Shown piece by piece: positions 33,024 through 64,000 of a stretch of DNA of 64,000 bases. A program made the translations under genes and the position numbers. Source of the DNA: Candidatus Omnitrophota bacterium (GTDB lineage Bacteria; Omnitrophota; Gorgyraeia; Zapsychrales; JANLHA01); the NCBI GenBank assembly GCA_030688425.1, contig JAUYIB010000007.1, forward strand, positions 29,854 through 93,853. Direction: 5' to 3'. The notes beneath the pieces were generated by a model. It had not been told where the DNA came from and ran no database searches. It was given only the letters and a program-made list of their open reading frames with translations. The number at the start of each line of letters is the position of its first letter. Within the stretch, counting starts at the first letter, position 1.

Positions 33024-33443
33024 ATGATCCTGGTGAGGAAAAAACGATTTTTCGGACGCCATGGGATGTCTCTTCTGGAATACATGGCCGTCCTCATGTT
33101 TATCATCGGGATTTTTGCCGTTTTTCAGGATTATATCAAACGGGGGTTTCTGGGGCGATGGAAGACTGTGGGCGATTCGTTCGGCCACGGCCGGCAGTAT
33201 GACCCCAAACCCTACGGCGTTGCGGGCGCGGGCGGCGGGACGCTGGAATGCATGTACATGCCCGCTGATCTCGCATGCCCGGCGGGTTGTCCGGCGCCGA
33301 CCCATTCCTGGATTTCGGTGAGGGATTTTGACGCCTGTGTAGGTGCGTTGCAGGGTGATAAGACAAAGGAATGTTGTTGCCGGATAACAACGGCACTTAA
33401 CGACTGCCAAAATGTCCCCTTGCCCTTTACTCCTGGCCCGTGA
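33024..33443 (+). CDS. Long Flp-like pilin 8 with Cys-rich C-terminus
   Basis: MILVRKKRFFGRHG/MSLLEYMAVLMFIIGIFAVFQDYIKRGFLGRWKTVGDSFGHGRQYDP... 139 aa from ATG 33024, with AAGGGGA 5 nt upstream. The C-terminal half has 8 Cys. Confidence 0.7.
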   Translation: MILVRKKRFFGRHGMSLLEYMAVLMFIIGIFAVFQDYIKRGFLGRWKTVGDSFGHGRQYDPKPYGVAGAGGGTLECMYMPADLACPAGCPAPTHSWISVRDFDACVGALQGDKTKECCCRITTALNDCQNVPLPFTPGP

Positions 33444-33543
33444 TCGTCTTGAATATTACGGATTCTTGCGTTCAGCCTTTGTTTGTTTTTCCCGGTCCTT
33501 TGTTGTGGTCTCGTCCGTTCGAAAGCCCATAGGATAATCATCC

Positions 33544-34398: not shown

Positions 34399-34473
34399 TG
34401 AGCGCATCATTTATGGAGCGAAAGCGAACATAAATGATTTGCGCGAATTAACCCCACTGTGACGTGGGGTTAA
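34396..34473. repeat. Intergenic repeat element, copy B
   Basis: TAATGAGCGCAT lies at 34396-34407. The hairpin GCGCATCATTTAT / ATAAATGATTTGCGC has loop GGAGCGAAAGCGAAC (34415-34429). GAATTAACCCC lies at 34445-34455. A 10-bp hairpin TTAACCCCAC-TGTGAC-GTGGGGTTAA spans 34448-34473. Confidence 0.55.
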
Positions 34474-34580
34474 TGTGGTTCAATGCTTGTTCCCCCGATC
34501 CCCGCAAAAACCATCGGTTTTTTGCGGGATACCGGAACAATCGACGGACATATCCAAAGGGGCTCATCGCCAAACGATTT

Positions 34581-36887: not shown

Positions 36888-39800
36888 ATGACCGACAGAT
36901 TGGACAAAATCGAGGACCAGATCGCTGTTGCTAATGGCAGTAATAGTAATACTGCTATTAGCTCGGAGCTCGCTTTGTCCCCTGAATTTTCTGCCGAACC
37001 AATCCCTTATAAGAGCCGTTTCAAGACCTGGATGAGGGCCGTAGCCCTCCTTGTTGTCATGACGTTTCTGCCCGAGCAGATCAGCTGGGCTTTCAATTAT
37101 AATCCTGCCGTTATTTGGAACATCGAAGATCAGAAATATATTGAACCGGAGTTTTCCAACGTTCAATCCACCTCTGCCGAGCAGATGGTGTCGTTGCGTA
37201 TCGCTGCCGGCATCAAGAATTTCCTGGGCCAAATTGTTGACAAGCAGGACACCCGCGTTCAAATCGCGCTTCCTGGAATTTCTCAGTCCGAAGACCCTTC
37301 CCGCAGCGTTATTGTTGAATCCAAAGTCACGATTTCCCAAGAGCATGTCCGCGATATTGCCGCTTGGTTGCGGGACCCCGCGATCCATCCCCTGAACTGC
37401 GGTGTTTATGCCTTGCGCGACCTTTTGGCGCAGCGCCAGGTGAACGTCAATTTGGAGGATCTTTCCCTGGCCACGCTGCTGGTGGATTTGCTCAATGACA
37501 TTGTCCGCCCCGGAGAGCAAAAGCTCAAAACGTCCCTTTACTCGATTCACCAGATCGTCAATTCCTACGGCCTGGACTTTAAGGCCGTTAAAGTCGACCC
37601 CCAACAGATCCTCAAACTGAACACCCCGTTTATCGCAAATTACGAGTCCGAACATTTTGTCACGGTCAACGCCGTTGATGAAACCAACGTCTATTTCACG
37701 GATATCGGCCGGACAAAAGTTGAGCCCAGGGAAAGTTTTGCCAAGAAATTGAGCGGGTATGTTTTGGCCGCGGATTTGGACAAAACAGATGTGGCTTATG
37801 AGCCGGTATCGGATGCGGCCATGGCGTTTGTCTGGGGGAACAGGTGGGTGAATCATTCTGATGATCTGCCTGGTTTGATGGACGGCGGCGATATCGCGCT
37901 CCAGGTGGGGATGGAGCTTCTCCAATTGGCGATGATCTTCATTTCGCCGATCAGTTTCTTAACATATATCGTTTCGCATATCATGAGCCTCCTGGTGACC
38001 GCCGGTGTCGTGGACCAGGACACGGCGTTTATTGTCACCACGGCCTTTTCCGCGGCGGTGGCGGCCTTCTCAATCATCTCGGCCGGCCTTCAGGCCGCCG
38101 GACAAGCAGGGACAGAAGCGGGGAAGACGGCGGCGACGGAAACAGGGAAAACTGTAGCGACGGAAACGGGAAAAGCGGTGGTCACGGAAACGGGGAAAAC
38201 GGTGGCTGAAAGTGCGGTCGTCACCACCGCTCAGGTTGGCGCACAGACCGCTCTGCAAGCGATCGGGAATATTTTTATCCAAATCGGGAAGGCCATTTGG
38301 GACGCGATCAAGAGCGTGTGGGAGGCGATCAAAGGGATTTTCACGGGCGAGACATTTACGAAGTTGTGGAGCAACATCGCGGACAACTTTACCATGATCG
38401 GGGGAACGTCAGGCGGCGCGGCGGGTGCGGGCGCGCCAGGAGTGACGGGTGCCGTCACAAACGCTGCTTCTTCCAACGCCATGAAGGCCGCGGCCGAAAG
38501 CGCGGCCGCCAAAAGCTTGGCGGGTGCGGCGACTAAATTGACCAGCGGTCAGATCGCGCAGTTGGTGGTGAAGGCTTTGGCCGCAGGCGCGATCAAGGCC
38601 ATTGTGCAGTTGAAATTGCCCGAGATCCTGGAGGAGGCCCTGGGGGATGATTTTGATCCTATCCTGAAGCAGGCGATCGTCGGCATCGCGACTTCGGTGG
38701 GGTCTGAGCTGGCCATGGGGACTTTCGCGGGCATCGCGGACCAGTTCGGTTCGCCGGTCCTGACCCAGGCCATGGGCATGGGCGAGTGGAAATTGGGCGC
38801 GGACGGCAAGACCGGTTATTTTGATCCCAGTTTCGGACAGGGCATTGCCGAGGCGTTAAAATCCATTCCCGAACGTTTCGTGTATGCCGGCATGCGCGCC
38901 TTGGGACAGATCCTTTTGAAAGAAATCGATGAGGAAAAATTTGGTCCTGACACGCTTGCTTCACAGGCATTCGGTGCCATGATCGGTGATCTCGGGGCTC
39001 TCACATTCAGGGCTTTTACGGATGATCTCGGTTTTTCTAATCCGGTGGAAGTGAAAAAGGATGAGAAAGGGTATTACATAGAACACTCCCTCGGCAAGGA
39101 CGCAGAGGGCAAGAGTATAAAAACACAGAAAGAATATATCACAGTTGATCCGGCGAAAGGGGATCACGTCGTCGCGGCCGGGAACACGGGCAGGACGTAT
39201 TTAATGACTGAGAATAAGTTTTTGTCCGCTTTCACGTCCCGGGTGTCCCAGGGGGCGTTTGCTATGGCCGTGGCCTACGGCGTGGATGAGCTCGCGGGCC
39301 GCGACGCCACGGACCAGTTTAAAATGCTTGCCGGCCGCATGATCGGTTTTATGTCGCAACAGGTCGTAACCGCTTTTGGCCCTGTTGTGGTTGATTTCTT
39401 CTCCGGAAAGAATATTGCCGCTCCGGGAAAGAGCGTTGTTGCCGATGGGGAAAACGCACAGTCTGCCCTTCAATACGCAGGCAATAACTTTTTGCATAAC
39501 TTTACGCATTTTGTGGATGACGACCTGGGTTATGGCGGAGCCAGCACTAAGCAGGCCTGGACCAGGAGCGGTTTCTCGAGCCTCCAGCAGTTCTCGCAGT
39601 TTATGGACCATTTTGTGGACGCGACCGGATTCAACCAGCAATGGGCCGAGGGGGTCAAGGATTATCGCAAGCAGCTTGAGAAGCAGAATCAGGAGCGGCC
39701 TGAAGGCGAAAGGTATGACGAAGAAACCATCGACACCATGGTGAATCTCTATGCCATGGAAGCCCATCGGGCTTCTCAAGCCGGATTCTTTAATACCAAA

Positions 39801-42800: not shown

Positions 42801-45800
42801 GCAGAAGTCATTTTCGGAAAAGACAGCCTGGCCGCCATGGCGTTGACCACGGTTTTGGGCACGGAGTATGTGACCCAGGTGGCCAAGCTCGAGGGTATGT
42901 TGCAGGACGCCGAAGTCCTTCTGGGGGATGCCAGCGGCAGGACGCACAGCGGTCCGTTCGCTGTTATGGTCGAAGACCAGGTGAAAACAAAAGTCAGCGG
43001 CAAGGCATTTTACACGGCGTCTCCGGTAATTGAGCAGACAGCGGTCTCCCTGCTGGGCGGCACGAAAAAGGATCAAATGGTGCTGACCGTTGATCCCGAT
43101 TATATTGCGCCAAACGCCGACGCGAGTAAAGTCCACTCCAGCGGTATTTCCGGGACCGGCAGCCAATTGATCTTCACGGAGCAGGGCACCGTTGAAGGGG
43201 TCTTCAGCGGAGTGGTGAACGCCGTCGGCCCGGCCGTCACTACGGCCCCCAACGCCTGGACCATGGAAGCCGCCCCTGTTACCACGGCCGTCTTCCCTAT
43301 ATTTATGATGATTCCGTTGCTTGGTAAAGTGCAAAATCCGGACGATCAGAAAAAGGACCAGTCCATCCTCGCGAAATCAGGCCAAAAGAAGGAGGGGTAC
43401 GATATTGTTGGTATCTTCGATGAGCTTGATCCGGTCGGGACAGAGACAGTCAATGGTCAGGCATGGAATATCTATGAGGTGGATATCTCTCAAAAATCTT
43501 TTTCAGGACAATTGTTTGCGGGAGAAGCCACCGGCAACAACGCCCAGAATTTTGTCGGGGTTGAGGTTGTTCAGAATGCGGACGGGACCATCACGCATAA
43601 AGCGAAACTCATGCCCCAGGGGAAAGACATCGTTTTCAACAGGGAAGGCGCCGGTCAAGGCCGCGTGACCTATCAGGCTGATCCTTTCCAATACGGCTTT
43701 GGGAGCCGGACCACCGGAGAAGACGGCAGGGAGAAAATCACTTACGCGTCCATGACCCAGTCCCTGGACAGCTTTTATCTTGAGAACCGCCAGGAAAGCA
43801 TGATTACCCCGAACGCGACCAATTCCAACGATCGCGTCGTCAAATTGAATGACGAAGGCGACGTGGCCAGCGTGGATGCCGGCCTTTTCAAGAATTCTCT
43901 GTTTGTCGGCGGCGTGAGAAAGGAAGGGCAGGATGCCGCAGCTCCGCTTGTTAATGCTATTAACGCGTTTTTGCCCGGAGGCGCTCAATTGTCTTTGCCG
44001 GAAGGTCTGGAATTTTCTGTCCCGGTTTCCCAGCAGTTGACCTACATGGGCAACGGCGCCATTTCCATCAAAGACGGTCAGTTAGTGGTCTTGGACGGCA
44101 GCGAGACCATGATCGTTTCTGAAGAGGGGACGAAATCGAGCCTGGTGAACGGCGGGCAGGACATGGTCAAGATGCGCCAGACGCGCGTCGGGTATCAGAA
44201 GGACGGCATCCAGGAATATTCTGTTTTGATCCAGACCGAATATCCGGAAGTCTTGTCGGGCGGGGAAGTCACCGGCAGCAAGGCGAAACTGGTTCTTCCG
44301 GCGGCAGCCGGTTTGATGAGGGAAGTTTCTGCGGAAAGAGATTACACCCAGCCGAATCTCAACAACGCGGACGTTCAGCCGGATTTTGATATCGTGAGGG
44401 GCGATGTGAAGGTTTCCGGATCCGACATCTTGCTGGCCGGCCAGGTGTGGGGCAAAGTGACGCCGTTCTGGTCGCAGGACGGAGACATCGCCAGCAGCTA
44501 CATCAAAGTCCAGTTCGGTCAGGTGGCGGACACCTATAATCCTTTTAACGTTGATATCAAGATCGAGCAGCTGGAAAGTTTCATGAAGGCGGTGGATAAG
44601 ACGTATCGCGGTGGCGCAGCGACCGCAGAGCAGCTGCAGTCCGGCATGAAAGAGGCCGGTTACAAGATTTCAAATGACGACGCGACCAAACTGGCCAAGG
44701 TGTTCAACGAAAGCCGTGCAGCCAACACCCCCGAAGCCAGAGAGGCCTTTAAGCAGGCCAGCCAGCAGGTTCTGAATGACAAGAATGAAAATCCCGCCGC
44801 CCAGGGGCAGGGCCCGCCCGGGGAAGTCGCCCTTGTCGGCCATGTTCCTGGCACGGAGTATAATTTCTTTACCGCCGCCGATCCGAGCCAGTTCCGACCC
44901 ACCGGAGACAGTGCAACGAGTCCAACCCAACCGAATGCCCCCGGGATGGATTCCCAAAGCAATACCAATAGACCTCCCTCAAAGATTGAAGCACCAGCCC
45001 CTCAAGCCGCAGATAATCAAGGCCAAATGGACATGCTCGCCTTGGCCAAGCCGACCGTTTTACCGGAACTTCCTCCCGAATCTCCGGTTCAGCCGGAACA
45101 GCAGCCCGATGCTTCTCAAAGTGAGAAATTATTGCGATCCGCCGCAGACATTTTAAAAAACTGGACAAATTCTATGGGCGCCGCGGCGGGCGACAATCTC
45201 GGCGAACCTTTCCCGGCAGAAAGCGATAGGCCGGCGACGTTGATTTTGGGCAATGTCATTTCCAATCGTGCGGCGTTGAAGCCCAGTGCGGACGGTTCAG
45301 GGGTTGATTCTCTGACCATCCAGGGTGACGGTGTTGTGCCGGAAACCAAGGAAACTTCGGAATTCGCCAAAGCCGCGGAAACCGGCCAGCCGTTTTTGAC
45401 CATGCAGATGGAGAAGGATCCTGCGACGGGCCAGAATGTGTTTCGAATCAACGGCAAGAATGTCGACCCTAAGGTCATGAACGAATTCGCCCAAAGCTTC
45501 TCGGAATATGTTTCCAGCCAATCCAAGGGCGACGTGCAGATCCTTGTTTCTAATGATTCTTCCAGCACAACCGTGATTCCGCAGGCCACGGTCACGGGGG
45601 GTGAACTGGCCATGGCTGGTTCTGCTCCTAATGCCGGCGCGGCCCAGAGCGAGGCGCCGTTGACGCCGGAAAAACAGAAACTCATGAATTTCCTGAACAA
45701 TCCGTCGTCCCAACTGACGCCGGCGGTTCCAATAGCAGCGGGAGAACTCACCGAGGTTCCCGGAGGTTCTCCCTCCAGCATGGGAGCGTCGGACAAGGCC

Positions 45801-57800: not shown

Positions 57801-60800
57801 GACATCCAGAGAGCCCTGGTCGAATTTGATCTCGCTGCCGACAAGTCCGTCTTTAAGAAAAAGGCCGAGCCGGCCGCATACGCTTCCGCGGGCACCGGCA
57901 GAACCATGGGCGCGTCCGAGAAATCAATGTTAAAAAAGCTGACGCCCGTTGCTCCGGCAACTTCCATGGCTGGCCTGCAGACGGCTGCAAAACCTCAGAC
58001 GTTGAGTGTCCAAACAACAACGGCAGATGTCAGTTCCGCCGCCGGCCAGGTGAAGGTGCCGGACATCAAGGCCCCGCCTGCCGGCGTTCAGCCGTCCGCT
58101 GTTCCTCCGGCCGCCCAGATCAAGGCCGCCACCCCGCTTCTTCCTCCGGGTCTGACCCCGGCGATGCTCCCGCTGAATTTAACCCAGGCCCCCAAGTCCG
58201 ACGCGCAGAAGATCGCTTCCGCCCAGCGCCAGGAAAGCCAGAGCCCGTCTTCCTTGCTGATCCGTCCGAGCGTTCCGGAAATTCCGCGCACCCAGTCCCC
58301 TGTTGTGGCCATGGCCTCGGCCGCGCCGCAGATGCAGTCGGTGAAAGGGGCGGCGGTCGCTTCCAGCAACATCTCTGACACGACCGGCCGCGGCAGCCAG
58401 GCGCCTTCGGTGGAACGCCAGACGTCGTTTGTGTCTGCCCAGCTCACCGATCGTTACGGCAACGTTATCGGATCCATGCAGAAGGGCATGAGTTCCACTT
58501 CCGCTCAACCCGGGACGGTCGGCCAGGTCGTCATGGCTTCCCAGAAGGAAGGCGCTCAGCCGCAGCCTGGGATCGACATTTCCAAAGATATGGCCAGCGT
58601 TTTCGGATTGAGACCTGTCGAGCCCGGCGAGCTGTCTTCCATCACGAACCCGCAGGCGTCCAAGGCCACGGCCGCGAGAGACCGGGAGTTGACCTCTCCC
58701 AGAGCCAAGCAGCAGAGAGAGCTGACCAGCGTCCGCGGGAAAGCGAAGACGGCCAAAGATAATTCCATGCTGTCCAAGAAGACAGTCGCCGCCGGAATGT
58801 TGGCCGGGGCTTTGGCGATGAACACACTGGGCGCGGATTTGGATGCCGTCCGTCGCACGACAATTTTTGAGAGACCCACGATCACAAAAGGAACGAATGA
58901 CGCAATCCCGCTGATCGTCAATTTCGGAAGACAAAAAGTCGACGTCTCGGTCATGTACAACTCAAGGAAGAGCATGGATGTTAATGATCCTGCGACCGTC
59001 AAGAAATTGGAGCGTGTCGCCGATGTCTTTGTGCAGGTCCGTGCCTTGGCCCCGGAGGCCTTTCATCTTATTAAGACGATCAGGCTCGATAACACCGATC
59101 TCCAAACCGCACAGGCAGGCCCGGATGACGGTTCCATCGATGTCCATGTGGATGACCTTTTCAAGCTCAACCCCACCAACCGCATGGAACTGGCGATGGG
59201 CCTTAAGGACGGCGAGGAAAAAGCGTTGATCACTGTGATTCATGAATTGGGTCATTTGGTCCAGGGGACCATGACCAAGGCCGAGCAGCGGGAGTGGTCG
59301 AGGTTGTCCTTCCCGAAGGCTACCGCCGGCGATTGGGCCGATGAGGCGTTTGGCCAGGCTTATGCAGATGTTGTGCTGAGAAGAAAAACATCGGTGGATT
59401 ATTATTATCAGCGCGGCAAGCGGGAGATCAAAGATAAAGATCGTGCCAGGGCCGAAAAAGAAAACGCGAAAATGCGCGCTTTCGTTGGCCGCGTCGTTGA
59501 TCGCCGCAAGGCCGCATGGGAAAAACGTTCGGCCTTTAATAATATCCAAAATGATACGGTCGGATTTGTTCAGATCCCGTCGGACATCTCCTGGGGGGAA
59601 GTCAGCCCCCGTATCGGGTCCCCATCGGCTATCGGCGACAAGTCGATGCTGTTGTCAAAGAAGCTGGCCGCCATTAAGAATCCGATATTCGAAGAAGCCG
59701 GGTATCGCATCAATCCGCAGACGCTGTCCATCGAACCGGTTAAATTCAATAGTGATACCGAGAGACGTCAGGCGGTTTCCGCGAAGATTTCCGGCATTTT
59801 GGCCGACCCCAGCCGTTTGACAGCAATTCCAAAGGCCAAGGGCGACGCTGCCAAGGTTGAGACGATCTTAAGGATGGACGGGTATCAACAGCCGTCCGGC
59901 GAAGCTGTCCCGAGTTATATGGAAGTCGTTTCGGTTGACAACACCATGTATGTGCGAATTCCGGCCGTGGACAAGAAAACGGGAGACAGATACGTCAAGG
60001 CGAACGCCGTGGAGCTGGTCGGGTTGTTCAGAAATCTGAGCGGCCAGGAACTCGAAAGCCGTTCGAATTATTCCGGCCGCGAACTTCAGCCCGACACGTA
60101 CTGGGCGCCCAAGAAAGAATACGTCACCAAGCACCAGCCGTATTATCAAGAGAAGATCCACCCCATGGTCGCCCAGGCCATCGGCGCTTCCATCGAAGGC
60201 GGGCAGGTGACATCGCAGGAAGTGGATGTCCTGGATATAGGCGGGCATAACGGTGCGTTTATTGAATCGTTGAACAAGCAGTTGCCGAAAATTTTCCCTG
60301 ACCGGAAATTCAAATTTGAGCTGGTCGAGCGCAATGAGGGCAGTGTCAAGGCCGCCGAGGCCAAATTCAAGGGTGTGAAGAACGTGACCGTCCAGAAGCC
60401 GACGGACTTGACCCAGAAGGGTATTTCCGCCACCGGGCCGAAGGACGTGATCACCGCCATCGGCGTTTTGAACGAGCAGGTCATGTCGGCCGATGATGCA
60501 AGAAGCTTAGCGAAGCAGGCGTATGACACCTTAAAGCCGGGCGGGGTCTTCATCGTGACCGGCGGGACCCGCACGCATTTGACCGTCAGCGACCTGCAGT
60601 CCATGGGCTTTGAGGTCCGCAACACGAGCATCCCGAGCAACGTCGCCATGTTTGAAGGCGTTGAGGATTTGATGATCGCCGTGAAGACCGCCCCCGCTGC
60701 CCGTAGCAGCGCTTTGGCCCGTGCGACAACCAAAGCTGCCGACAAGTCGATGTTGAAGGACATGCGCCTTGCCAATCCGGCGGCGGAAAAGGCGCGCGTT

Positions 60801-63800
60801 GTGAATGTGGTTCGCGCAAATATCCTTGCCAATGGCCGGCTGGTTCAGGACGTGCGGTCCCTGGGCTACACAGCCGACCAGGTCCAGCAGTTTGCCACGC
60901 GCGTGGCCGATCATGTGAGCAATGTTTCCCACACCGAAACGCCGAGTTTCTCCACGACGGGCACTCTGTACCCCTACACCCAGCCGGAAGATCAAATGAA
61001 GCTGTTGCGCGCCGAATTCCGCACGATTATCGAGTCGAAGAAGAACCAGCCGGAGAGGACATTTGATCTTGTGGCGTCCGGGCTCGGCCGCCAGCCGCTT
61101 GAGGCTCAATTGGCGATGAAGGCCTTTTACGACGAATTGAAAGCCGCCGGCCAGAATCCGCAGGATTGGCAGGTCCGGTTCTACGGGATTGATTACAGCG
61201 ATGAATCGCTCAAGGGCGCCATCAAGGAGAACGGAACGAATGTCATTGACGCCTCGACCCGCGGCATGATCAAGATCATGTTCCCCGGACAGAGCATCGG
61301 CGGGAATAACCTCCAGGTCAATATTGTTGCGGCCAACCTGCTGGATGAACAGTCGCTGCGGCAGGCTCTCCCCGGCGTCAAGGCGGATGTGATTCTTGAC
61401 CGCCACACGCATTACGGCAATCATAAGGCCATGTGGGGAGATTTCGACAAGGCCTTGAACGAAGCCGAAGCCCGTAAGCAGCCGGTGAAGAATAATCTGA
61501 ACCTGTTGGGCTTTACGATCGCGGCTGTGCAGTCCAGCAACCTGATCAAGACGGTCGGCCGCGAAGGCACACTGTATGTGACCGAGCCGTATACGACTCA
61601 AAGCGAAGATAACAAATTCGGGGCCGCGGACAACTGGAAGACTGATTTCAAACCGTTTGTGCCGCCGGGGACCGAGCTCATGACCACCAACCGCATCGCC
61701 GCGGAGCTTTCCGCCGTGAATGCCGGAGCGGCTAACAGCCTGGCGTTCTCGACGCGCAATTTCCTGCCGTACGGTACTGGGATAACCCGCGTCGCGGATG
61801 TCAATGCCGTGCGCAACGCGGGTTTAAGAGATTTTCAGAGATCCATGGGTTCGGCTGTTGAAACGGCCCGGATGAGCGATCAGAATTTGAAGCTGGCCAA
61901 GGTCGGCGACAAGAGCCTGCTCACGGCCAAGGTCCAGGAACCGGAGCTTTGGGGCGGGCATGTGCAGACCAGCGTTAAGACTTTGATGAGGGATGGGGAA
62001 AAGATTGGTGAAAAGGTCAGCATGAAGCCCGCGAGCCCGGCTGACGTGACGGCCCACCCGCAGATTGCCGCCAAGAATGTCGTCGCCAATATTGAGCCAG
62101 CCATCACTGCGGGACTCAGGGCCCAGCCGCAGGTGCGCACGCCGGACATCAAAGCGCCTCAGGCGGCCGCAACGAAGATTACGACTACCCCGCTTCTGCC
62201 TCCTGCCGTGGCCACTGCGGCGACATTGAAGCCGGTCACCACCACCTTGCCGCCTGCGCCGGCCACCCTTAAACCTGTGACCACGATTCTGCCGCCCGTG
62301 ATGCCGCAGGCCAAGAAAGACACAGAACAACCCCGGACTGCCGCAATCGCTTCCGCCAGAGCCGGCGATCAGTCGATGTTGCGTAATAAATCCGGCGAAC
62401 CCCGGGAGAAACCGGTCGTGGCCGCAGGATGGAACAAGCTTGTTTCCGATCGGCTGTTGGCCCAGAACAGAAAGATCGCGTGGGAACCCAATGAAACACC
62501 GGAGCAGTTTATCGCGCAAGTCCGGGAGGGGAAGGCGGCGGAAGCCATTAACAGCTTTGTGATACGCAGGAGCGCCGGCGCCGAAGATCATGAAAGAAGG
62601 GATTATCACACGCAGGCCGTCGATTTCGCGGTAACCCAGATGGTCACGGATCGCGATTTCGCGGGGATGGAAAGATTGGTGACCCAATATAACCGGCAAA
62701 ATGTGAACATCAGTCTGCCGACACAACTGATGATCGAATCTTTGGTTGACAATAATCCCGCGCAGGCCTACGGCCGTCTGGCCCAGGCTTCCAGACTCGA
62801 TGAGAACGGCCCTCAACAGATTGTCAGCCTGGATAACATGGTTGGCCATGTCCGTCTGATCAATAAATTCCAGGGTCGGCCGGTCAGCGATCAACAGCTT
62901 GTTCAGGGGATCCGGGAGGGGATTGGGACATTGCCTCAATCCAGGGCCGCCATGGTCGCAGTCCGTGATTTTGACGCCGAGCAAACGCTGGCCCCGGCTG
63001 TCTGGCAATTGCTCAAGCGCCGCGGCCAGGATGCCGATTATCTGCATTTTGAAACCGTGAAAGATAACCTTTATGTGGGGCCGGATCAACAATTGTACTT
63101 GAAAAAAGAGCAGGTGTATCAGACGAAGCCTTTGACGGCCCATATGGACGTCAACAATCCGGTCCGCGAGTATTTTGCCTACAAGATCGGCCGCGCCATC
63201 GGGGCCAACACCACGGAAACAATCATCGCTCCGGAGAAGACCTATTCCAGAATCTCGCTTGATGAGAAAGAGACATTGCCGCAGCCGACGAAAGAACAGG
63301 CGGAGGCGGCTGATTTCGTGCTGAACGTCTTCCTGCGTGTCCCTGATCCTTCGAAAGATTTTGTCCAGAAGTCGAAAGTCGGCGACACCGTCAAGTTCTT
63401 CGATAAGGACCGCGCTTTTGACGATGATTCTGAACCTATGGGCGAAGTGAACGAGCCGCACAGCGGTTATCTGGGTAAGCTCGCTTATTACACCCGGGAA
63501 AATCAGCAGCATTGGAGCGCTCAGGATTTTGACCAGGCCACGATCTGGGAGACGATGGACCGTGTCCAGCAACTGGATATCGAAGACGTCGAGGCAGGAG
63601 CGAAACCCGAAGTCGACAGGCTCGGCACCCACGCCACCAGAGAATTGGCCCAGTATGCGAGCTTCCTGCACCGGACCCGAGGGCCTCAGTTTGAAAATGA
63701 CGTGAGGGCCGCGTTTAAGGCCCTGACCGGCGACGACCTGAAGCCGCGAGAAGTGGCCCTCCGCGAAAGAGCCCTGCGCGAAACCACGCGGCTGGCCTCC

Positions 63801-64000
63801 CAGCCGGTGGATTTGAGGCAGCGCGGCCTTTCCAGCCCCAGGACCGGAGACCAGAGCATATTAAAGGACAAGGCCGAACAGCCGGACTTCTACGGCGGGC
63901 ATTTGTTCACCAGCCGCAGAACCATCAGCCGGATCAGCATCGGCGAGCGTCTCGGGCAGATGTCGAACCTTGAAGCGAAAGTCAACCTGGTCCGGCCGGT
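36888..64000 (+). CDS. Giant multidomain membrane-anchored protein, 3'-partial (>9,037 aa in window)
   Basis: An in-frame TAA at 36882 is followed by ATG 36888. My manual translation of this frame reached 64000 without meeting a stop. All + ORFs in the supplied track within this span lie in the other two frames. The translation is globular-looking and carries several catalytic motifs (see the domain features). No obvious SD is present, so the exact start is uncertain. Confidence 0.9.
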   Translation, partial: MTDRLDKIEDQIAVANGSNSNTAISSELALSPEFSAEPIPYKSRFKTWMRAVALLVVMTFLPEQISWAFNYNPAVIWNIEDQKYIEPEFSNVQSTSAEQMVSLRIAAGIKNFLGQIVDKQDTRVQIALPGISQSEDPSRSVIVESKVTISQEHVRDIAAWLRDPAIHPLNCGVYALRDLLAQRQVNVNLEDLSLATLLVDLLNDIVRPGEQKLKTSLYSIHQIVNSYGLDFKAVKVDPQQILKLNTPFIANYESEHFVTVNAVDETNVYFTDIGRTKVEPRESFAKKLSGYVLAADLDKTDVAYEPVSDAAMAFVWGNRWVNHSDDLPGLMDGGDIALQVGMELLQLAMIFISPISFLTYIVSHIMSLLVTAGVVDQDTAFIVTTAFSAAVAAFSIISAGLQAAGQAGTEAGKTAATETGKTVATETGKAVVTETGKTVAESAVVTTAQVGAQTALQAIGNIFIQIGKAIWDAIKSVWEAIKGIFTGETFTKLWSNIADNFTMIGGTSGGAAGAGAPGVTGAVTNAASSNAMKAAAESAAAKSLAGAATKLTSGQIAQLVVKALAAGAIKAIVQLKLPEILEEALGDDFDPILKQAIVGIATSVGSELAMGTFAGIADQFGSPVLTQAMGMGEWKLGADGKTGYFDPSFGQGIAEALKSIPERFVYAGMRALGQILLKEIDEEKFGPDTLASQAFGAMIGDLGALTFRAFTDDLGFSNPVEVKKDEKGYYIEHSLGKDAEGKSIKTQKEYITVDPAKGDHVVAAGNTGRTYLMTENKFLSAFTSRVSQGAFAMAVAYGVDELAGRDATDQFKMLAGRMIGFMSQQVVTAFGPVVVDFFSGKNIAAPGKSVVADGENAQSALQYAGNNFLHNFTHFVDDDLGYGGASTKQAWTRSGFSSLQQFSQFMDHFVDATGFNQQWAEGVKDYRKQLEKQNQERPEGERYDEETIDTMVNLYAMEAHRASQAGFFNTKFAGGIISPDQYSAGGIVEGMKTTLEYIFSAIILSYSPTSRVEDPATGQMVANPDSKAVKIFRDWLGFTYRPILKRASRDGKTNVVEEYVCAPGQPCRGHTAGNKDVLFLFTKFSGKGMNNYFFNFEADQTVIDTPWVNLETGEMYVISGEYQSWFGGAADETFKTADGQSHRFIGGGGEAETAWDNDRHDKKISGVPENMSSLGIASYGHSALYSEGAVAYTAEKDGDRIVTSAASSTNYVGSDGTMNTQFSQFNPWSGKKPTGDDSFLLALAAALFAGVDPATGRFIVDQDAVNRDPAGAVGALFDLARGLFPDDANLAYKTTDENGNTVIQTSNNLVLALIENTTRVIDKSKKFIQDRGEPIIYSDESQGVYAMAAPADANETAGILAEAKGKGMYAWVGSGPEDEGKIFISSQGLKESVNETVITIAPNTELGKALSRAVRGVEGTETQSVQTTWMRLGTDGLPDRRFIIADRLLQNSWETFKDGHEEAPVFIPTMKAGELALSAGLGEILPSLQNTLDLIKKEPGKSIVFEGEGDLAQKLPGTKLSVEAQVAALKKFKEAVAAQSGVGASPEEWPEGDYSTDKLVTVLQGANYSPEKIAEAMAKPPAEQAVMIAEVDASFQLEPADPRVKNERLAEFRKEAIDQVVADTSVKQGFGAALNDNPDQVNLKVADKPLFLNDYGQAYFEGQTTILDSENRPVVVGNVNTVISLSGSRETRGEDSIRTVFTLANPNGNPTVVNENGEIVDLGSGVKAQGIAQGEGVTFGDLYQGYFGVKPSGANTVYLAEAFYTVKEGTGEIEAGRVYSKYANGSINREAYGLVTSGAEKGDSFTFSMVGEYINRAGEKSGTEGASGSSVVKAEIIDTNVQLLTAQDGAAVLLDNRPKAAAKDGQASTGGNQPGAYEIHPFSLMVRDFNAMLGPGSVIVYGSQFGQSPRSDDEKIKNAIVKVNDDGRVTFYLNGKEATLAFDGKIFHVTPPTAVIRAAKPTAAGQAAVATAEVIFGKDSLAAMALTTVLGTEYVTQVAKLEGMLQDAEVLLGDASGRTHSGPFAVMVEDQVKTKVSGKAFYTASPVIEQTAVSLLGGTKKDQMVLTVDPDYIAPNADASKVHSSGISGTGSQLIFTEQGTVEGVFSGVVNAVGPAVTTAPNAWTMEAAPVTTAVFPIFMMIPLLGKVQNPDDQKKDQSILAKSGQKKEGYDIVGIFDELDPVGTETVNGQAWNIYEVDISQKSFSGQLFAGEATGNNAQNFVGVEVVQNADGTITHKAKLMPQGKDIVFNREGAGQGRVTYQADPFQYGFGSRTTGEDGREKITYASMTQSLDSFYLENRQESMITPNATNSNDRVVKLNDEGDVASVDAGLFKNSLFVGGVRKEGQDAAAPLVNAINAFLPGGAQLSLPEGLEFSVPVSQQLTYMGNGAISIKDGQLVVLDGSETMIVSEEGTKSSLVNGGQDMVKMRQTRVGYQKDGIQEYSVLIQTEYPEVLSGGEVTGSKAKLVLPAAAGLMREVSAERDYTQPNLNNADVQPDFDIVRGDVKVSGSDILLAGQVWGKVTPFWSQDGDIASSYIKVQFGQVADTYNPFNVDIKIEQLESFMKAVDKTYRGGAATAEQLQSGMKEAGYKISNDDATKLAKVFNESRAANTPEAREAFKQASQQVLNDKNENPAAQGQGPPGEVALVGHVPGTEYNFFTAADPSQFRPTGDSATSPTQPNAPGMDSQSNTNRPPSKIEAPAPQAADNQGQMDMLALAKPTVLPELPPESPVQPEQQPDASQSEKLLRSAADILKNWTNSMGAAAGDNLGEPFPAESDRPATLILGNVISNRAALKPSADGSGVDSLTIQGDGVVPETKETSEFAKAAETGQPFLTMQMEKDPATGQNVFRINGKNVDPKVMNEFAQSFSEYVSSQSKGDVQILVSNDSSSTTVIPQATVTGGELAMAGSAPNAGAAQSEAPLTPEKQKLMNFLNNPSSQLTPAVPIAAGELTEVPGGSPSSMGASDKASPDQQIPEGVEGGLVFRLGQWDAKRGRNVFTGFVTHAPGGIGSYYGIDKSAADTATGIPTTLSFQSSTYSDSVKISLYRKDANSTDSRFVGIYIDDKGQKIPFNMKNYAGLGVIEGLKYGLTDLASNRQALDENFVFAVSEFAKIFNSYGFAGSKDAPFEAFLQGMKNKQEGQTPYNFGENFVNALVQAEMTHAIELYKKALSSRDMKEYNAYKNKKIDALALPLAEALGLNSNDQLKTEVKNLVWQQLLELEGRIRMGGADVAGYASAEDSVKPGLQEFRNIQFAKTEKEIGSFTTSGSDGRDILAAIPKEEMAEINKLALAQDVREIAAQAGDETARQAVLNNPSLSEDGKVNLVKGILDISSPASLEEAKQRVLNDPSLSADQKAGLANKSPEEVALAQPDLWLKNSASAAQVALVRSDLWAGIGTAKLVLTAADGSPIRRNQTDTNMMGDLALVTKNDEGKYVYLNDQGEKVVTETLPANAQALMFYNPQKKLNGAQTGEGFINWQFAGGEARVLKDGVDGGVWGPANWTFVEGPDGNALTETKTGLILVNEKGTPVLQNGQFVHLTKRDDGNFVDAEGNVVPGNGFVGPLQPGQALAKVAPLGIYLTGAQQGVSTAALSDGSGWNENAGIGQKIRFNDQGAWNLLLENGRVVLPGDYSTMNKVGDAGALGTGLGFFSPNTPQGKGGANQEPKLSLTPHVAKDGILDNGNIVAALGQGIANGGKDSTAGLEFVGLNMVRGRAQFASTLGQQGVSISADQNEVNAARRWLTTLGQGGGEELTMMATGQKLIIMPTLPVLERKINQIRAAKTDGVVVDTDTQRMGVVSKKDFNAAPDAKLGFKTPVRSGQLIVQGTVKGEDGKNKIVFKVIDAERLMGAPEKWIQGTFLNPKSGKTEIVYVRASDWEQRNLTDRLNIPYQGEYGGFRHTHALVTIAGLSKQFELEEMKAELVSEGGIRAGMRVDQLLYAAEDDVTGSDNIDMYLTDAKGHRVAGTKVSVDIGEIKLGTTDAEVAFNGHQVELARGVSLEDVLAGREATQAEWERGFEVSWYQKLWRSDNRIVRVPVADESGNVSYLYREVDDGTFEGKIKGEPIEISSLDYFGENANVRLANESAAVGFWGHLFDSFDTDRNDDNMVAASFDAGGNAHVGIIDFEPTLLGHLVTDEYADSKTGDVVVARGVLNRDDGVKEFFKTGDSADTMATWIGSIDAITAPITVALALTGVGNLANAGKEGAKQAGIRMATEMVKRKLATDAAKILLSETGKAVGRVGLNYAKNYLVISGVSLGLEEAITYHYTGGLMSSDNVVRSLLLSHGFTAAARGLKTVALAEQLKTLQAAAQTSKFFNTPARAAASSLAITTAATTGVSIAGEIVSKGGWDRADVKTAAIRGALLGPVVFSSIYGGSKLVAFSGGGIADYGKLALQTAVLPGVTYGAYGFGTSIADDVQAGREISFADAAFKGGKYGLWAMGVGAGLTLGSRGVLAFSKSGKSLVAVAKTVKTPAMQPYNSLTSAQKFAYVRNVILWRAAGGGAGLAAGNAYSLATRGDFLPTDANIAAFAAGAIFIKLRNPKQYFAAGIQRLGGVTVAGEGAAASKIPILAIPKMVSHGATGFAGAGVLWEGTKGVIGGVARYIDGDPGMYSKAEQFDSKFQLMSTYANTIGGGMSAGLWMGPLIGFAMAGAKTHFGNLVMENQGFVGTTSLVIRAARNGFRPGTVEKLATQYTKTNSSNWLHKALGLTKTAAGELEGNYLAKQVAMVDHLAVFLGATDILNAVNSDALTALALEDPEMAKKISGDHHPLSQKGQEEIMKTAGEIALWEAIVLLPQPGGWPQAKGPRAPPELGYHDGPGYHDGPGYHGSGEGKGQPRTFRDAFGYFREGEDSFAYRERRSPTLLQDPQAQLDPKKEIDRYLGTLPEGERAELDSYSQQAGPMHPDTEAVVAVPVAGHQEAKNIYRTLSNFADQRDSRGSRINPNSFEILLFVNHPEGTSAEATLAEVARFKQDNPNVNVRVVHQTFGAGEFTIGRVRKSTTDLVLKRSQERPEGSDKEVVIISNDADMKSMSPIYISSVVEAFKANPRADAMLGKIDWDNAAYEKSPFVHIGTRMFQYLDAIYRGKHKRIGSSGANYAFRGSTYSAVGGYFRSDRITEDVRLGELFRSARGGNRDSYRGRFLYGSAKMEIQTDARRAMDAVARGLSPAEQWSGGNFGANDALRMKDWLAGEGFDLAQIRTPAFRAKLQDMFRRTLYEYHPNFGPAERRVLGFMGIEYTLEKASRVSPEGQNAVKQRIAELDAQRLAALEKGNTEGAGKIEGQISDLSNIVKRMQEVTTLPVFTDVSKLAAGLEGWHQARGNKPASPERGPAPSTGPPSGKGGRETQGFAFDNGQQKTTRFAEGNGETWQGVVDGHTQGLDASIHAGLKNGTIQRRTVTYQGSKYRTYEFFDVKTGEVKLRIFRGNGVNRYEYVDPSAETTMGRKGGGYVSLAPRDAIGTRQGKDKIVIVHDGSEAVRNHEMTEARVILQQRSFRDGRMRASSAEHARNLTEKDSHDYVADVVGFRGEETSRFSGMLRPVEPAMSGPRMERVQPPAMAPPVEAPLFRLPTTNAPLLPPGLSRGRASEGREVIAFASDNFDSKKEPTKDRADRLAKAAKDLYAGKPIQDAGLSPKETKYAKEIHSIMRTMEAEGDGKGGSISLKGRDEQVFNIASFYVTAKETGKITVSSDTGSGKSEAALGVIKHFQRSDPDLTIVAAFPQKVVGEVVGRADMAGANDGRVNKKFEKGKINVTSLDGVFEVLHETVRTGEKLDSRRTILLVDETDKLFRHSSHVTGSREEGSALLELQKEGNPQATRAVESLDRNMRQFQQANQSLEEMVAEKGLHQVLVNDGFNVTFKSESGRKEFLQRFRSRLSGEQEAVPEAELLKRADALAKEVWEGMYPGQKPDANSQNGFVLYKEGGFTAPNTIPSDRTAAQAKVVRSGGTLEHFINATMSETRNPTTAHDVVNAFDRFLGATATAESTRMSHEIEGVEIVQKAPEKDYVKDVKPVLDSRARKGESYTDAILENLSRPELSEEGRITLASTFLAKAVDDTVSRLRSKAQAEGRAPEYIEGEEAYRHQRGDKEIVTLVAREDPNNPGFLNEGSEKAVRSLIERIQNNPNEEANILVLGLSSGSNLLGIVDALKVKIRANPAEARNLPKVNELFFGIEAEAEIGQFMSRAKEDPQTGRLSPSKIREAIILIENDPHIPSAEYAAAKAALEIADPAAREQAVRSAFSRMIRGHQARMEANSIMGNVHTTSQTAGRISKPELLAKLDQHLRETDQRTTRDHLEASGQKHVQVPTTSGQGYETFVLSSSSPAGIEAISVTNTGDENNKLIGINQTLNYRSGLFYHKDDEEQKNPIAMAVTTDVGGKPQTQKMSVEAVSPAQSSLIGGTTGLAVKVTDAKITGTPVSLGDQITFTKGVGVVSAAGAREPKTIIVGGRFGEQIGANQFRLPYEEDGTTTLQLVRNDKNEIADVERATIAAGKKAIDFGGFVLSPAQTWNLKNNLIQDAKGRNVKAVRAIPTALGVTTMAFDIGETYQIGRDVVDLKGVDGDKRITVGMSPTYRVTEREDGMDELVRQDIELPQDRVEIRTPGGVLTLSKGDYRESSGVVRDSSGNIKGMIFDNGHASAVSNGKLVLSDYSKAGVGLKISAGVQQAIDKGKAEFETIEMEVSPELAADKQFGGHFLDVLKTASVKADGTRVVTTSPVALKSYLDQGQGEKYVQETFLGALNNAPIKWAYKGREGLKVTSVADNPGSHPVLSNAVQTAAAHWKGVADNMADDEVLPVQLRSGETLDLTRAQIQAMATHLAKMQTGGETLTTGQKSHGVMMIEGYSAEIQEKMVEDILQNPAAYEIKEGFTPTQKLRIAHFMADKMLQGHQGTGGDVTGREGRYVYLFDVGRPDIGKQIFKGREDLLGRLEQSKPAGLSEADEMAMIIEHEALSFLGKESDPANRVTLSHDEVVDIQRALVEFDLAADKSVFKKKAEPAAYASAGTGRTMGASEKSMLKKLTPVAPATSMAGLQTAAKPQTLSVQTTTADVSSAAGQVKVPDIKAPPAGVQPSAVPPAAQIKAATPLLPPGLTPAMLPLNLTQAPKSDAQKIASAQRQESQSPSSLLIRPSVPEIPRTQSPVVAMASAAPQMQSVKGAAVASSNISDTTGRGSQAPSVERQTSFVSAQLTDRYGNVIGSMQKGMSSTSAQPGTVGQVVMASQKEGAQPQPGIDISKDMASVFGLRPVEPGELSSITNPQASKATAARDRELTSPRAKQQRELTSVRGKAKTAKDNSMLSKKTVAAGMLAGALAMNTLGADLDAVRRTTIFERPTITKGTNDAIPLIVNFGRQKVDVSVMYNSRKSMDVNDPATVKKLERVADVFVQVRALAPEAFHLIKTIRLDNTDLQTAQAGPDDGSIDVHVDDLFKLNPTNRMELAMGLKDGEEKALITVIHELGHLVQGTMTKAEQREWSRLSFPKATAGDWADEAFGQAYADVVLRRKTSVDYYYQRGKREIKDKDRARAEKENAKMRAFVGRVVDRRKAAWEKRSAFNNIQNDTVGFVQIPSDISWGEVSPRIGSPSAIGDKSMLLSKKLAAIKNPIFEEAGYRINPQTLSIEPVKFNSDTERRQAVSAKISGILADPSRLTAIPKAKGDAAKVETILRMDGYQQPSGEAVPSYMEVVSVDNTMYVRIPAVDKKTGDRYVKANAVELVGLFRNLSGQELESRSNYSGRELQPDTYWAPKKEYVTKHQPYYQEKIHPMVAQAIGASIEGGQVTSQEVDVLDIGGHNGAFIESLNKQLPKIFPDRKFKFELVERNEGSVKAAEAKFKGVKNVTVQKPTDLTQKGISATGPKDVITAIGVLNEQVMSADDARSLAKQAYDTLKPGGVFIVTGGTRTHLTVSDLQSMGFEVRNTSIPSNVAMFEGVEDLMIAVKTAPAARSSALARATTKAADKSMLKDMRLANPAAEKARVVNVVRANILANGRLVQDVRSLGYTADQVQQFATRVADHVSNVSHTETPSFSTTGTLYPYTQPEDQMKLLRAEFRTIIESKKNQPERTFDLVASGLGRQPLEAQLAMKAFYDELKAAGQNPQDWQVRFYGIDYSDESLKGAIKENGTNVIDASTRGMIKIMFPGQSIGGNNLQVNIVAANLLDEQSLRQALPGVKADVILDRHTHYGNHKAMWGDFDKALNEAEARKQPVKNNLNLLGFTIAAVQSSNLIKTVGREGTLYVTEPYTTQSEDNKFGAADNWKTDFKPFVPPGTELMTTNRIAAELSAVNAGAANSLAFSTRNFLPYGTGITRVADVNAVRNAGLRDFQRSMGSAVETARMSDQNLKLAKVGDKSLLTAKVQEPELWGGHVQTSVKTLMRDGEKIGEKVSMKPASPADVTAHPQIAAKNVVANIEPAITAGLRAQPQVRTPDIKAPQAAATKITTTPLLPPAVATAATLKPVTTTLPPAPATLKPVTTILPPVMPQAKKDTEQPRTAAIASARAGDQSMLRNKSGEPREKPVVAAGWNKLVSDRLLAQNRKIAWEPNETPEQFIAQVREGKAAEAINSFVIRRSAGAEDHERRDYHTQAVDFAVTQMVTDRDFAGMERLVTQYNRQNVNISLPTQLMIESLVDNNPAQAYGRLAQASRLDENGPQQIVSLDNMVGHVRLINKFQGRPVSDQQLVQGIREGIGTLPQSRAAMVAVRDFDAEQTLAPAVWQLLKRRGQDADYLHFETVKDNLYVGPDQQLYLKKEQVYQTKPLTAHMDVNNPVREYFAYKIGRAIGANTTETIIAPEKTYSRISLDEKETLPQPTKEQAEAADFVLNVFLRVPDPSKDFVQKSKVGDTVKFFDKDRAFDDDSEPMGEVNEPHSGYLGKLAYYTRENQQHWSAQDFDQATIWETMDRVQQLDIEDVEAGAKPEVDRLGTHATRELAQYASFLHRTRGPQFENDVRAAFKALTGDDLKPREVALRERALRETTRLASQPVDLRQRGLSSPRTGDQSILKDKAEQPDFYGGHLFTSRRTISRISIGERLGQMSNLEAKVNLVRP
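37330..37780 (+). other. Giant ORF domain: C39-like papain-fold cysteine peptidase
   Basis: HPLNCGVYALRDLL has its Cys codon at 37398-37400. NYESEHFVTVNAV has its His codon at 37653-37655, 85 residues later. YFTDIG supplies an Asp 16 residues after the His. This spacing is as in bacteriocin-processing C39 peptidases. A TM helix (WMRAVALLVVMTFL) precedes it and hydrophobic helices (37890-38100) follow. Confidence 0.55.
38112..38207 (+). repeat. Four tandem 24-nt coding repeats (T-E-[AT]-G-K-x-[AV]-x)
   Basis: The units are ACAGAAGCGGGGAAGACGGCGGCG, ACGGAAACAGGGAAAACTGTAGCG, ACGGAAACGGGAAAAGCGGTGGTC and ACGGAAACGGGGAAAACGGTGGCT. All are in frame in the giant ORF. Confidence 0.85.
49420..50860 (+). 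other. Giant ORF region: Gly/Ala-rich hydrophobic block (about ten candidate membrane helices)
   Basis: Candidate segments include ITAPITVALALTGVGNLA, AAIRGALLGPVVFSSIYGG, YGLWAMGVGAGLTLGSRGVLAF, ILWRAAGGGAGLAAGNAYSLA, IAAFAAGAIFIKL and IGGGMSAGLWMGPLIGFAMAGA. This is judged by eye, not by a TM predictor. Confidence 0.45.
51600..52440 (+). other. Giant ORF domain: GT-A fold (GT2-like) glycosyltransferase with DxD
   Basis: AVVAVPVAGHQEAKNIYRTLSNF is a beta1-type start. VVIISNDADM carries the D-A-D at 51966-51974. GANYAFRGSTYSAVGGY and ITEDVRLG also match conserved GT2-family motifs. Confidence 0.55.
53850..55500 (+). other. Giant ORF domain: SecA-motor-like / SF2 helicase-like P-loop ATPase
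   Basis: Walker A is SSDTGSGKSE (53958-53981). A DExD-like Walker B is ILLVDETD (54225-54245). A motif III-like GATATAES lies at 54819-54842. The order and spacing recall the SecA DEAD motor (..TGEGKT.., ..VDEvDS.., ..GMTGTA.TE..). Confidence 0.5.
58900..59420 (+). other. Giant ORF domain: zincin-like metallopeptidase (HELGH)
   Basis: ALITVIHELGHLVQG has HEXXH at 59241-59255, in a ~170-aa segment bounded by two DxSML motifs. Confidence 0.45.
60190..60700 (+). other. Giant ORF domain: class I SAM-dependent methyltransferase
   Basis: Motif I is VLDIGGHNG (60228-60254). The acidic post-I is FELVERN. LKPGGVFIV is also present. This is the Rossmann methyltransferase order. Confidence 0.6.
61060..61610 (+). 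other. Giant ORF domain: second methyltransferase-like module (CheR-type topology)
   Basis: FDLVASGLGRQPLEAQLAM..., WQVRFYGIDYSDESLKGAIKENG and NIVAANLLDEQSL...ADVILDRHTHYG parallel the CheR pattern (WSAGCSTGEEPYSlAm / I.ATDI....L..A..G / F...NLL....fD.IFCRNV.IYF). The SAM-binding residues are not conserved in an obvious way. Confidence 0.35.

Follow-up and report, generated by a model that had tools for sequence, protein, structure and literature searches.

Giant genes of the Omnitrophota, which are tiny predatory bacteria, have been reported to encode an N-terminal C39 peptidase domain adjoining a signal peptide and to contain glycosyltransferase, methyltransferase and peptidase domains, with a secretion cluster upstream that consists of gspD/E/F, rcpC, a Rotamase_2 peptidyl-prolyl isomerase (PPIase) and class III signal peptide genes (West-Roberts 2023, bioRxiv 10.1101/2023.11.21.568195). 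The same giant class and the same Tad linkage were described by Seymour 2023 (PMC10066038) and by Nielsen & Lui 2026 (bioRxiv 10.64898/2026.06.07.730766). Published members carry a divergent SecA_DEAD / SecA preprotein-binding domain, reach >10-30 thousand residues and have PilZ genes on their 3' side. It has been proposed in the literature that C39/S8 domains may cleave the giant proteins; West-Roberts 2023 calls the cleavage points unknown and treats as the central open question whether the product is one chain or many cut products. Here we analyzed 64,000 nucleotides of DNA from a Candidatus Omnitrophota bacterium (assembly GCA_030688425.1, contig JAUYIB010000007.1, positions 29,854 to 93,853 of the forward strand; this whole stretch is hereafter the window, and coordinates are counted from its first base). 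The window contains a giant open reading frame (ORF) of this kind, and in the encoded protein a short peptide, which we call the delimiter, recurs at the borders of the enzyme cassettes.

The giant ORF (36888..63998, + strand) begins at the first ATG (36888) of a frame, frame 3, which has no stop codon from 36885 through the last window base. It comprises at least 9,037 codons and is still open at the window end, and none of the other reading frames over this stretch is open for long. The gene lies in an Omnitrophota genome and encodes an N-terminal C39 domain near a transmembrane (TM) segment, with a cluster resembling type II secretion (T2SS) and Tad systems upstream and with glycosyltransferase, methyltransferase and peptidase modules, of which the GT-A and methyltransferase modules were supported and the zincin was identified by motif only. 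As in the published giants, there are several hydrophobic segments, most of the sequence is unannotated and poorly conserved, and the cluster holds a Rotamase_2 PPIase, RcpC, GspD/E/F-like proteins and class III signal peptide genes. The window protein differs in lacking a Pfam SecA_DEAD match, having only a bare Walker A/B module, and in being cut by the window end. What the window carries is thus the first 27 kb, from the 5' end, of a multi-enzyme ('Archaeovorin'-like) giant gene of the Omnitrophota. It is a further example of a class reported since 2022 (Kizina 2022), and its architecture by itself is already known. The first-pass annotation, made from the sequence alone, had proposed an undescribed delivery system; since operon content and the N-terminal C39 are as in West-Roberts 2023, this proposal was not upheld.

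The delimiter pattern [GA]-D-[KQ]-S-[MIL]-L is represented by 8 copies in the giant protein versus 0.14-0.17 expected from shuffles. One copy, DQSIL (43356-43370), is found at residue 2157, 11 residues after an isolated hydrophobic helix (residues 2128-2146, Kyte-Doolittle 1.75; helix and delimiter together 43269..43370, + strand). The other seven fall between residues 7011 and 8988, all on the + strand, and read EKSML (57918..57932), DNSML (58758..58772), DKSML (59637..59651 and again 60741..60755), DKSLL (61908..61922), DQSML (62367..62381) and DQSIL (63849..63863). Over the last 2,000 residues of the window, delimiters bracket every cassette and spacer. In order, and all on the + strand, the bracketed units are Pro/Ala/Ser-rich spacer A (57933..58757), a zincin-like cassette (58773..59636), the methyltransferase cassette MT1 (59652..60740), the methyltransferase-like cassette MT2 (60756..61907), Pro-rich spacer B (61923..62366), a cassette without recognisable fold (residues 8499-8987, 62382..63848), which had no Pfam match and no PDB match in a single-sequence search, and the start of another spacer. 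Delimiters fall outside all aligned cassette cores, and internal repeats adjoin them. The sequence downstream of the last delimiter repeats that after the delimiter at 61908, a similarity of ~70 residues being common to the junctions at residues 8341 and 8988, and an 'EP[ED][LF][WY]GGH' element follows both (61908, 63849). Spacers A and B were also found by repeat analysis to be homologous, with residues 7018-7113 (57939-58226) repeated at residues 8379-8491 (62022-62360). The spacer repeat contains 'PDIKAP ... PLLPP', and 'PLLPPGL' also precedes the P-loop module at residue ~5575. The delimiter is not described in West-Roberts 2023, Seymour 2023 or Nielsen & Lui 2026, and no prior description was found in the literature for an Omnitrophota polyprotein, its cleavage or the motif strings.

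Large proteins that have one cassette in common with the window protein were each found to have a recurrent junction peptide of their own. These were [RK][SA]ELR in five proteins (P0076, P0081, P0132, P0145, P0170), RSE[MV]R in two (P0095, P0188), and GAMHE (P0074), D[RA]AM[LM] (P0078) and GARL (P0143) in one each. With the patterns defined after inspection of the data, there were 6-22 copies per protein versus at most 0.12 expected, at a median spacing of 296 residues. Homologous cassettes were bracketed at equivalent positions and no motif was found inside any cassette. The motif-to-motif span of MT1 was 368 residues in the window and 356, 341, 365, 336 and 348 residues in five other proteins, while that of MT2 was 389 residues versus 374, 334 and 341 residues, with P0188 an outlier at 669. 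In the aligned sequences, each protein's own motif comes within ~2-25 residues after FYILRK, where the conserved part of MT1 ends. From these sequences a common delimiter core, [RKQ]-[SA]-x-[LM], possibly extends across the proteins. In polymorphic toxins (CdiA with VENN, Rhs with PxxxxDPxGL) there is one delimiter per protein, placed before a single C-terminal toxin. The likeness is a short conserved peptide at the border of exchangeable cassettes; proteins of the window type differ in having many delimiters each and a consensus that varies by protein.

Evidence for shuffling of the modules came from an exhaustive protein search in which nearly every match covered one cassette alone. Large proteins that are otherwise unrelated contain the GT-A, MT1 or MT2 cassette, one at a time, from which we conclude that the modules are shuffled. 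Metagenome scans with a 3-sequence MT1 alignment and with a P0145 segment returned no relatives. If the delimiters served as DNA joints for this exchange, in the manner of VENN in CdiA and with no role in the protein, cassettes exchanged between giants with borders at delimiters, as evidently occurs, would be accounted for. The codons however vary by copy, with Ser encoded by TCC, TCA, TCG or AGC and Leu by CTC, TTA, CTG or TTG, which implies selection on the peptide and not on the DNA. Homologous recombination would require longer and more uniform stretches than ~15 nt whose codons differ to the extent of TCN versus AGY for Ser. We therefore rejected a role as DNA-level recombination joints, which is very improbable given that conservation is at the amino-acid level.

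The codons also bear on a reading in which the delimiters are internal translation starts and the giant ORF is a set of nested genes. The fourth motif position is Met in five of the eight window copies, and M, V or L in RSE[LMV]R-type motifs. Against this, a GGAGG-like Shine-Dalgarno sequence was seen at most of 14 inspected real gene starts but is missing upstream of seven of the eight delimiters. At the remaining one, 63849, GGAG is present but the codon concerned is ATA, and the would-be start codon is ATC, CTG or ATA in three of the eight copies. Internal initiation at the delimiters was rejected because of this absence of Shine-Dalgarno sequences and the non-start codons, and we regard it as hardly credible.

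At the N-terminus, the order of TM anchor, C39-like peptidase and TM cluster read in the first-pass annotation was borne out by hydropathy, Pfam PF03412 and AlphaFold2 (AF2). The anchor (residues 48-69, 37029..37094, + strand; Kyte-Doolittle 1.6; AF2 helix H44-69) has K/R-rich residues before it and is flanked by a SWAFNYNP motif that is kept in all homologues. The C39 domain with its conserved N-terminal extension of ~60 residues (residues 97-320, 37176..37847, + strand) matched PF03412 with E 2.8e-9, which exceeds the gathering score. An AF2 model built from the homologue alignment had pLDDT of ~90 or more over residues 97-320, and a Foldseek search of this model against the PDB gave the double-glycine proteases LahT150, PCAT1 and ComA as best matches (TM-score 0.62-0.70 on target). 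C171 (37398-37400), H256 (37653-37655) and D272 (37701-37703, all + strand) are invariant across 19 homologues, and the peptidase, its triad being intact, appears active. The papain-like fold and the Cys/His/Asp triad are thus those of the C39 family, as in PCAT1, ComA and LahT. Unlike those enzymes, the window C39 is not fused to an ABC transporter, with no such domain found in the giant ORF by Pfam or NCBIfam; it also has the ~60-residue extension, probably faces the periplasm, and its candidate sites have no Gly-Gly. As judged from its sequence, the window protein presents neither the leader cut after Gly-Gly/Ala/Ser nor the ABC exporter partner of known C39 substrates. The following TM cluster (residues 333-398, 37884..38081, + strand) consists of two or three helices, the number being uncertain because of low pLDDT in the AF2 model. 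The positive-inside rule points to a possible periplasmic location of the C39 domain.

A delimiter-like string, SRSVIVES, is present within this domain (residues 137-144, 37296-37319), ~25 residues before the catalytic Cys. Its counterparts in homologues include EKSILIES, DQSLLLDS, EKSILINS and EKSVLISA, and the delimiter pattern was matched at this alignment column in 4 of the 19 aligned sequences. In the AF2 model SRSVIVES forms a beta strand that belongs to the confidently predicted fold. It could be a chance occurrence, a structural strand or a pseudo-substrate.

When the N-terminal 900 residues were used as query, only C39-domain proteins were matched, nearly all of them partial and with 30-52% identity; source-named matches were Omnitrophota/Omnitrophica except for one labelled Elusimicrobia. 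With 52% as the best identity, the window's own species is absent from these representatives. An alignment scan with the N-terminus, one genome per species, gave 80 loci. Their labels are mostly Omnitrophota/Omnitrophica, with many 'uncultured Planctomycetales' metagenome-assembled genomes and single Elusimicrobia, Caldithrix and 'bacterium' records. The homologous ORF could be traced in 72 loci and ran past the locus end in 68 of these, so that the ORF lengths of 2,100-3,890 residues are the portion within loci having the full 10 kb of downstream DNA. Residues 1 to ~400 are the sole part conserved in all 72 homologous ORFs, and past residue ~400 weak collinear matches were found in 4-11 loci. 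Together with cassettes that recur singly in unrelated proteins, this agrees with the expectation, raised before the analysis, of a conserved head combined with swapped modules; conservation of catalytic residues among homologues was likewise seen, for the C39 Cys/His/Asp and for the GT-A DxD. A k-mer enrichment analysis of 51 homologous ORFs of >2,000 residues (up to ~3,900) detected no delimiter, only tandem-repeat domains in three loci (L055, L064, L072), which is consistent with the window, where the corresponding region has a single copy. Giant genes may also be fragmented in databases, as illustrated by one homologous gene (ENA contig_38025, locus L081, 10001-22907) that is called as pieces of 968, 1,943, 738 and at least 2,265 residues, probably through long-read frameshift errors.

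We propose that the delimiters would be recognition or cleavage sites, and that the giant protein would be a polyprotein from which separate enzymes are released, either by its own C39 peptidase or by a different protease. More tentatively, the freed enzymes might act at or in a prey cell touched by the Tad-like apparatus. The polyprotein part of this proposal draws on a peptide that stays constant within a protein while the cassettes move, on a protease that is always present in the family, and on processing having already been suspected in the field. The prey-interface part draws on the operon linkage, on a Cys depletion typical of exported proteins, and on published proteomics in which a giant protein of Velamenicoccus archaeovorus was up threefold in attached cells. 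Taken as a whole, a multi-enzyme giant gene of a Tad-like operon with delimiters as processing sites and with enzymes at the prey interface is the explanation that we favor, by a little over even chances.

The intact triad and the delimiters also bear on whether the protein is cut at all. A single membrane-anchored surface coat or scaffold bearing many enzymes, never cut, with the delimiters as linker caps or partner docking sites, would agree with the extracellular coat and prey cell-wall degradation that the literature proposes for Velamenicoccus, and with a delimiter that breaks the C39 double-glycine rule; SRSVIVES, moreover, is confidently modelled in the N-terminal domain as a strand and not as a free linker. 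A structural linker, however, needs no protein-specific consensus kept at the peptide level while the cassettes that it flanks are common to several proteins, and the catalytic triad has stayed intact across 19 diverged homologues. We consider such an uncut coat unlikely, while giving it real weight.

Several observations count against processing at the delimiters. Residues 4800-7010, with the GT-A, P-loop and other modules, contain no delimiter. Measured against the C39 double-glycine site, P1 would be Gly in 4 of 8 copies and P2 in 0 of 8. In addition to the definition of the junction patterns after inspection of the data, the comparison proteins that bear motifs have no taxonomic label and many have an N-terminal domain other than C39, and among C39-type giants the cassette region is visible in this window alone. 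The delimiters are candidate sites. As the C39 domain may be periplasmic and the cassettes could lie on either side of the membrane, protease and sites could sit in different compartments. Finally, enzymes dependent on S-adenosylmethionine (SAM), nucleoside triphosphates (NTP) and nucleoside diphosphate (NDP)-sugars make little sense outside the cytoplasm unless they enter prey.

With respect to proteases other than C39, eight of the large comparison proteins (P0081, P0096, P0116, P0117, P0140, P0143, P0145, P0200) have a signal/TM segment followed by a conserved domain of ~500 residues with an invariant IQDAH ... EG ... GGxH. No Pfam, NCBIfam or PDB match was obtained for this IQDAH ... GGFH domain, which from its placement where the window protein has C39 could be a processing enzyme. 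As a weak lead from sequence comparison, the delimiter G|DKSML resembles the Flp prepilin site KKG|QSTLEY of the same operon; no gene for a prepilin peptidase was detected in the window, and neither the +5 Glu nor the hydrophobic segment is present at the delimiters.

Between the head and the cassettes, ~3,780 residues (400-4180, 38085..49424, + strand) are domain-free, nearly Cys-free and poorly conserved. This region had been described beforehand as ~3,800 motif-less residues rich in Gly/Asn/Thr/Val. No Pfam or NCBIfam match at E <= 0.1 was found in it, as claimed, but the N/T/G/V enrichment is only modest. The Gly/Ala-rich hydrophobic block that follows, delineated from the hydropathy profile, is real and longer than the ~480 residues (49.4-50.9 kb) first assigned to it, extending over residues ~4180-4760 (49425..51167, + strand). 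Its mean hydropathy is +0.2 to +0.35 versus about -0.3 elsewhere, G+A amounts to ~30% and charged residues to 14%. It contains ~ten segments at Kyte-Doolittle 1.15-1.57, none of which reaches the classical TM cut-off of 1.6. Conservation of the block, which the first-pass annotation had wanted compared among homologues, was seen at its end, where residues 4544-4801 match another giant ORF (locus L002; 26% identity, E 3e-16).

A block of this kind recalls MARTX toxins, which are huge proteins with an exchangeable effector array and a built-in cysteine protease that cuts inter-domain linkers after Leu. The window protein likewise is very large and has an effector-like array and a built-in cysteine protease. 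It differs in that its protease is an N-terminal C39 and not an inositol-phosphate-activated cysteine protease domain (CPD), in lacking glycine-rich A/B/C repeats and a type I secretion signal, and in that its delivery is hypothetical. The earlier statement that there is no sequence similarity to MARTX or large clostridial toxin (LCT) families held, as neither gave a Pfam or NCBIfam match at E <= 0.1. The MARTX-like logic that it had proposed survives in part, as protease, possibly membrane-active block and swappable enzyme array are all present, but in a system already described. In a self-delivering toxin of this type the block would insert in the prey membrane, and the cassettes would be translocated and released by autoprocessing. 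Cassettes that need cytoplasmic cofactors (SAM, NTP, NDP-sugar), a Gly/Ala-rich amphipathic block, strong Cys depletion, and a protease plus delimiters linked to a contact apparatus would all fit such a mechanism. Less easily accommodated are the lack of any resemblance, in sequence or in fold, to MARTX repeats, CPD or LCT translocation regions, the absence from the block of any segment with TM-like hydropathy, and the fact that the GT-A and P-loop modules, which lie after the block and before the first C-terminal delimiter, are not themselves delimited. We judge self-delivery of this kind improbable.

The Cys content of the giant protein is extreme, with 3 in 9,037 residues (0.03%), one of which is the catalytic C171, versus a mean of 1.5% over 18 neighbouring ORFs; homologous giant proteins are likewise Cys-poor. 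This was weighed against the alternative of a cytoplasmic multi-enzyme 'metabolic cluster', in which the chain stays in the producer and the cassettes are housekeeping or regulatory enzymes. Nielsen & Lui 2026 class such proteins in this way, the cofactor needs suit the cytoplasm, and three TM helices after C39, if the model is followed, would put the remaining chain in the cytoplasm. The alternative is nevertheless difficult to reconcile with Cys depletion this extreme relative to neighbouring cytoplasmic proteins, with tight operon linkage to a secretin/Tad system, or with very fast divergence and shuffling, which are commoner in conflict or interface proteins; it appears quite improbable. 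The cofactor needs argue for the cytoplasm and the Cys depletion and secretin/Tad linkage for export, and MARTX-like delivery would reconcile both.

Of the five enzyme modules listed in the first-pass annotation, the GT-A and MT1 modules were substantiated and MT2 weakly supported, while the P-loop and zincin modules were identified on motifs alone. The GT-A glycosyltransferase cassette (residues 4846-5260, 51423..52667, + strand; DxD at 51966-51974) had 45 homologues of 30-44% identity in which SNDAD is invariant, and D5027-A-D5029 was invariant in 15 sequences. Its AF2 model (pLDDT 83, pTM 0.85) matched PcManGT, hyaluronan and chitin synthases and mannosylglycerate synthase (GT-A/GT2-like) in Foldseek with E 2e-7 to 1e-4. 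Alignment and model together firmly confirm the predicted GT-A fold with its DxD motif. Nothing useful was returned by a single-sequence PDB search, and nothing by a PDB profile search with the alignment. The homologues (P0029-P0073) are proteins of 850-2,600 residues, in most of which the match falls within the C-terminal half. Some also have protein kinase domains, and no delimiters were found in these GT-A-bearing proteins. Two homologues are source-named Daviesbacteria and Saccharibacteria (Candidate Phyla Radiation), so that the GT-A cassette is present in two groups of ultra-small, host-dependent bacteria.

The P-loop / DExD module (residues ~5590-6300, 53655..55787, + strand) was recognized by its motifs only, a Walker A GSGKS (53964-53978) and a Walker B VDETD (54231-54245). 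It gave no SecA_DEAD (PF07517) or helicase Pfam match at E <= 0.1, no PDB match and no homologue. The zincin-like cassette was recognized by HELGH (59241-59255); no relative of this region was returned when 1.84 billion representative proteins were searched exhaustively, and there was no Pfam or PDB match. MT1 matched Methyltransf_12 with E 1.4e-6, and the homologous cassette of P0081 matched Methyltransf_25 with 4e-19; these profile matches confirm its assignment as a class I SAM methyltransferase. A methyltransferase assignment of MT2, which is Rossmann-like by its homologues, is weakly supported, with Methyltransf_31 matched by 3 of 12 homologues at E >= 0.006; the one PDB match of its profile, to DotG, was a spurious repeat match. 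A query of the 2,048 C-terminal residues returned nothing at E <= 1e-5, probably having been swamped by low-complexity candidates. Proteins that string together unrelated enzyme domains, thought to be freed by embedded peptidases, are also found among viral polyproteins and the polyvalent proteins of phages and conjugative elements; the latter, reportedly described by Iyer et al. 2017, are said to combine methylase, helicase-like ATPase and zincin domains in one polypeptide. The window gene differs from those of polyvalent proteins in being chromosomal, in a pilus/secretion operon, with a membrane anchor, far larger and with no apparent DNA-injection context.

The giant gene stands last in a conserved Tad-like operon beside oriC. 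This Tad-like pilus/secretion operon (15408..35459, + strand) encodes the PPIase, which is a Rotamase_2 protein, RcpC, a secretin with TonB_C, a CpaE/CpaF ATPase, DUF192, pilins, the products of orf498, orf1388 and orf153, TadB and TadC. Of the 48 homologous loci whose upstream DNA extends for at least 8 kb, 46 have TadB/TadC (65-76% identity) immediately before the C39 gene, and homologues of orf498, orf1388 and orf153 were found upstream in 44, 53 and 47 related loci, respectively. At 17370-21550 the secretin has its TonB_C at the C-terminus, and the ATPase is a fusion of CpaE/ParA-like and CpaF/T2SSE parts of 728 residues. Seven tandem Flp-type pilin paralogues of 69-126 residues with class III signal peptides (KKG|QSTLEY-like) occupy 24310-26889. 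GC content at 22-26 kb is 0.45 versus 0.55 around it, and orf584 (22369-24123) matched no Pfam family; none of the 80 related loci contains a homologue of it. The three proteins encoded at 26925-33443 are Cys-rich (orf498 2.4%; orf1388 4.0%, 55 Cys; orf153 5.9%), in sharp contrast to the giant protein; their N-termini are pilin-like or TM, and none of them matched Pfam.

TadC and the giant gene are separated by a 1.4-kb gap of low GC (35460-36887), whose small ORFs and DNA are not conserved across homologous loci. Within the gap, the minus strand has a terminator-like hairpin at 36586-36602, and a promoter-like site was seen at 36447-36475. The latter overlaps the one stretch that resembles another locus at the nucleotide level (L013, 58 nt, 81%). 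No Shine-Dalgarno sequence precedes the giant-gene ATG. The start of the window is the chromosomal replication-origin region, with yidC (842-2431, minus strand), dnaA (3366-4703), dnaN (4849-5964), gyrB (6365-8821), gyrA (8885-11452) and a tRNA gene (11519-11592), and the Tad operon and giant gene lie within ~15-37 kb of dnaA. In V. archaeovorus the Tad locus is reported to be similarly placed, at 12-30 kb on CP019384.

A wider proposal is that giants of Omnitrophota and of other uncultured bacteria would be true polyproteins, in which cassettes of ~150-700 residues are exchanged, refitted with the recipient's delimiter and released by a cognate protease at the predator-prey interface. We put this forward tentatively, as a possibility that we would at present lean against. 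If true, cells would have their own equivalent of viral polyprotein processing, and the cleavage points that the field lacks would be at hand. The delimiter is in any case a new lead, as it provides concrete candidate cleavage sites that are checkable by proteomics and offers a rational division of the giant proteins into units for structure prediction.

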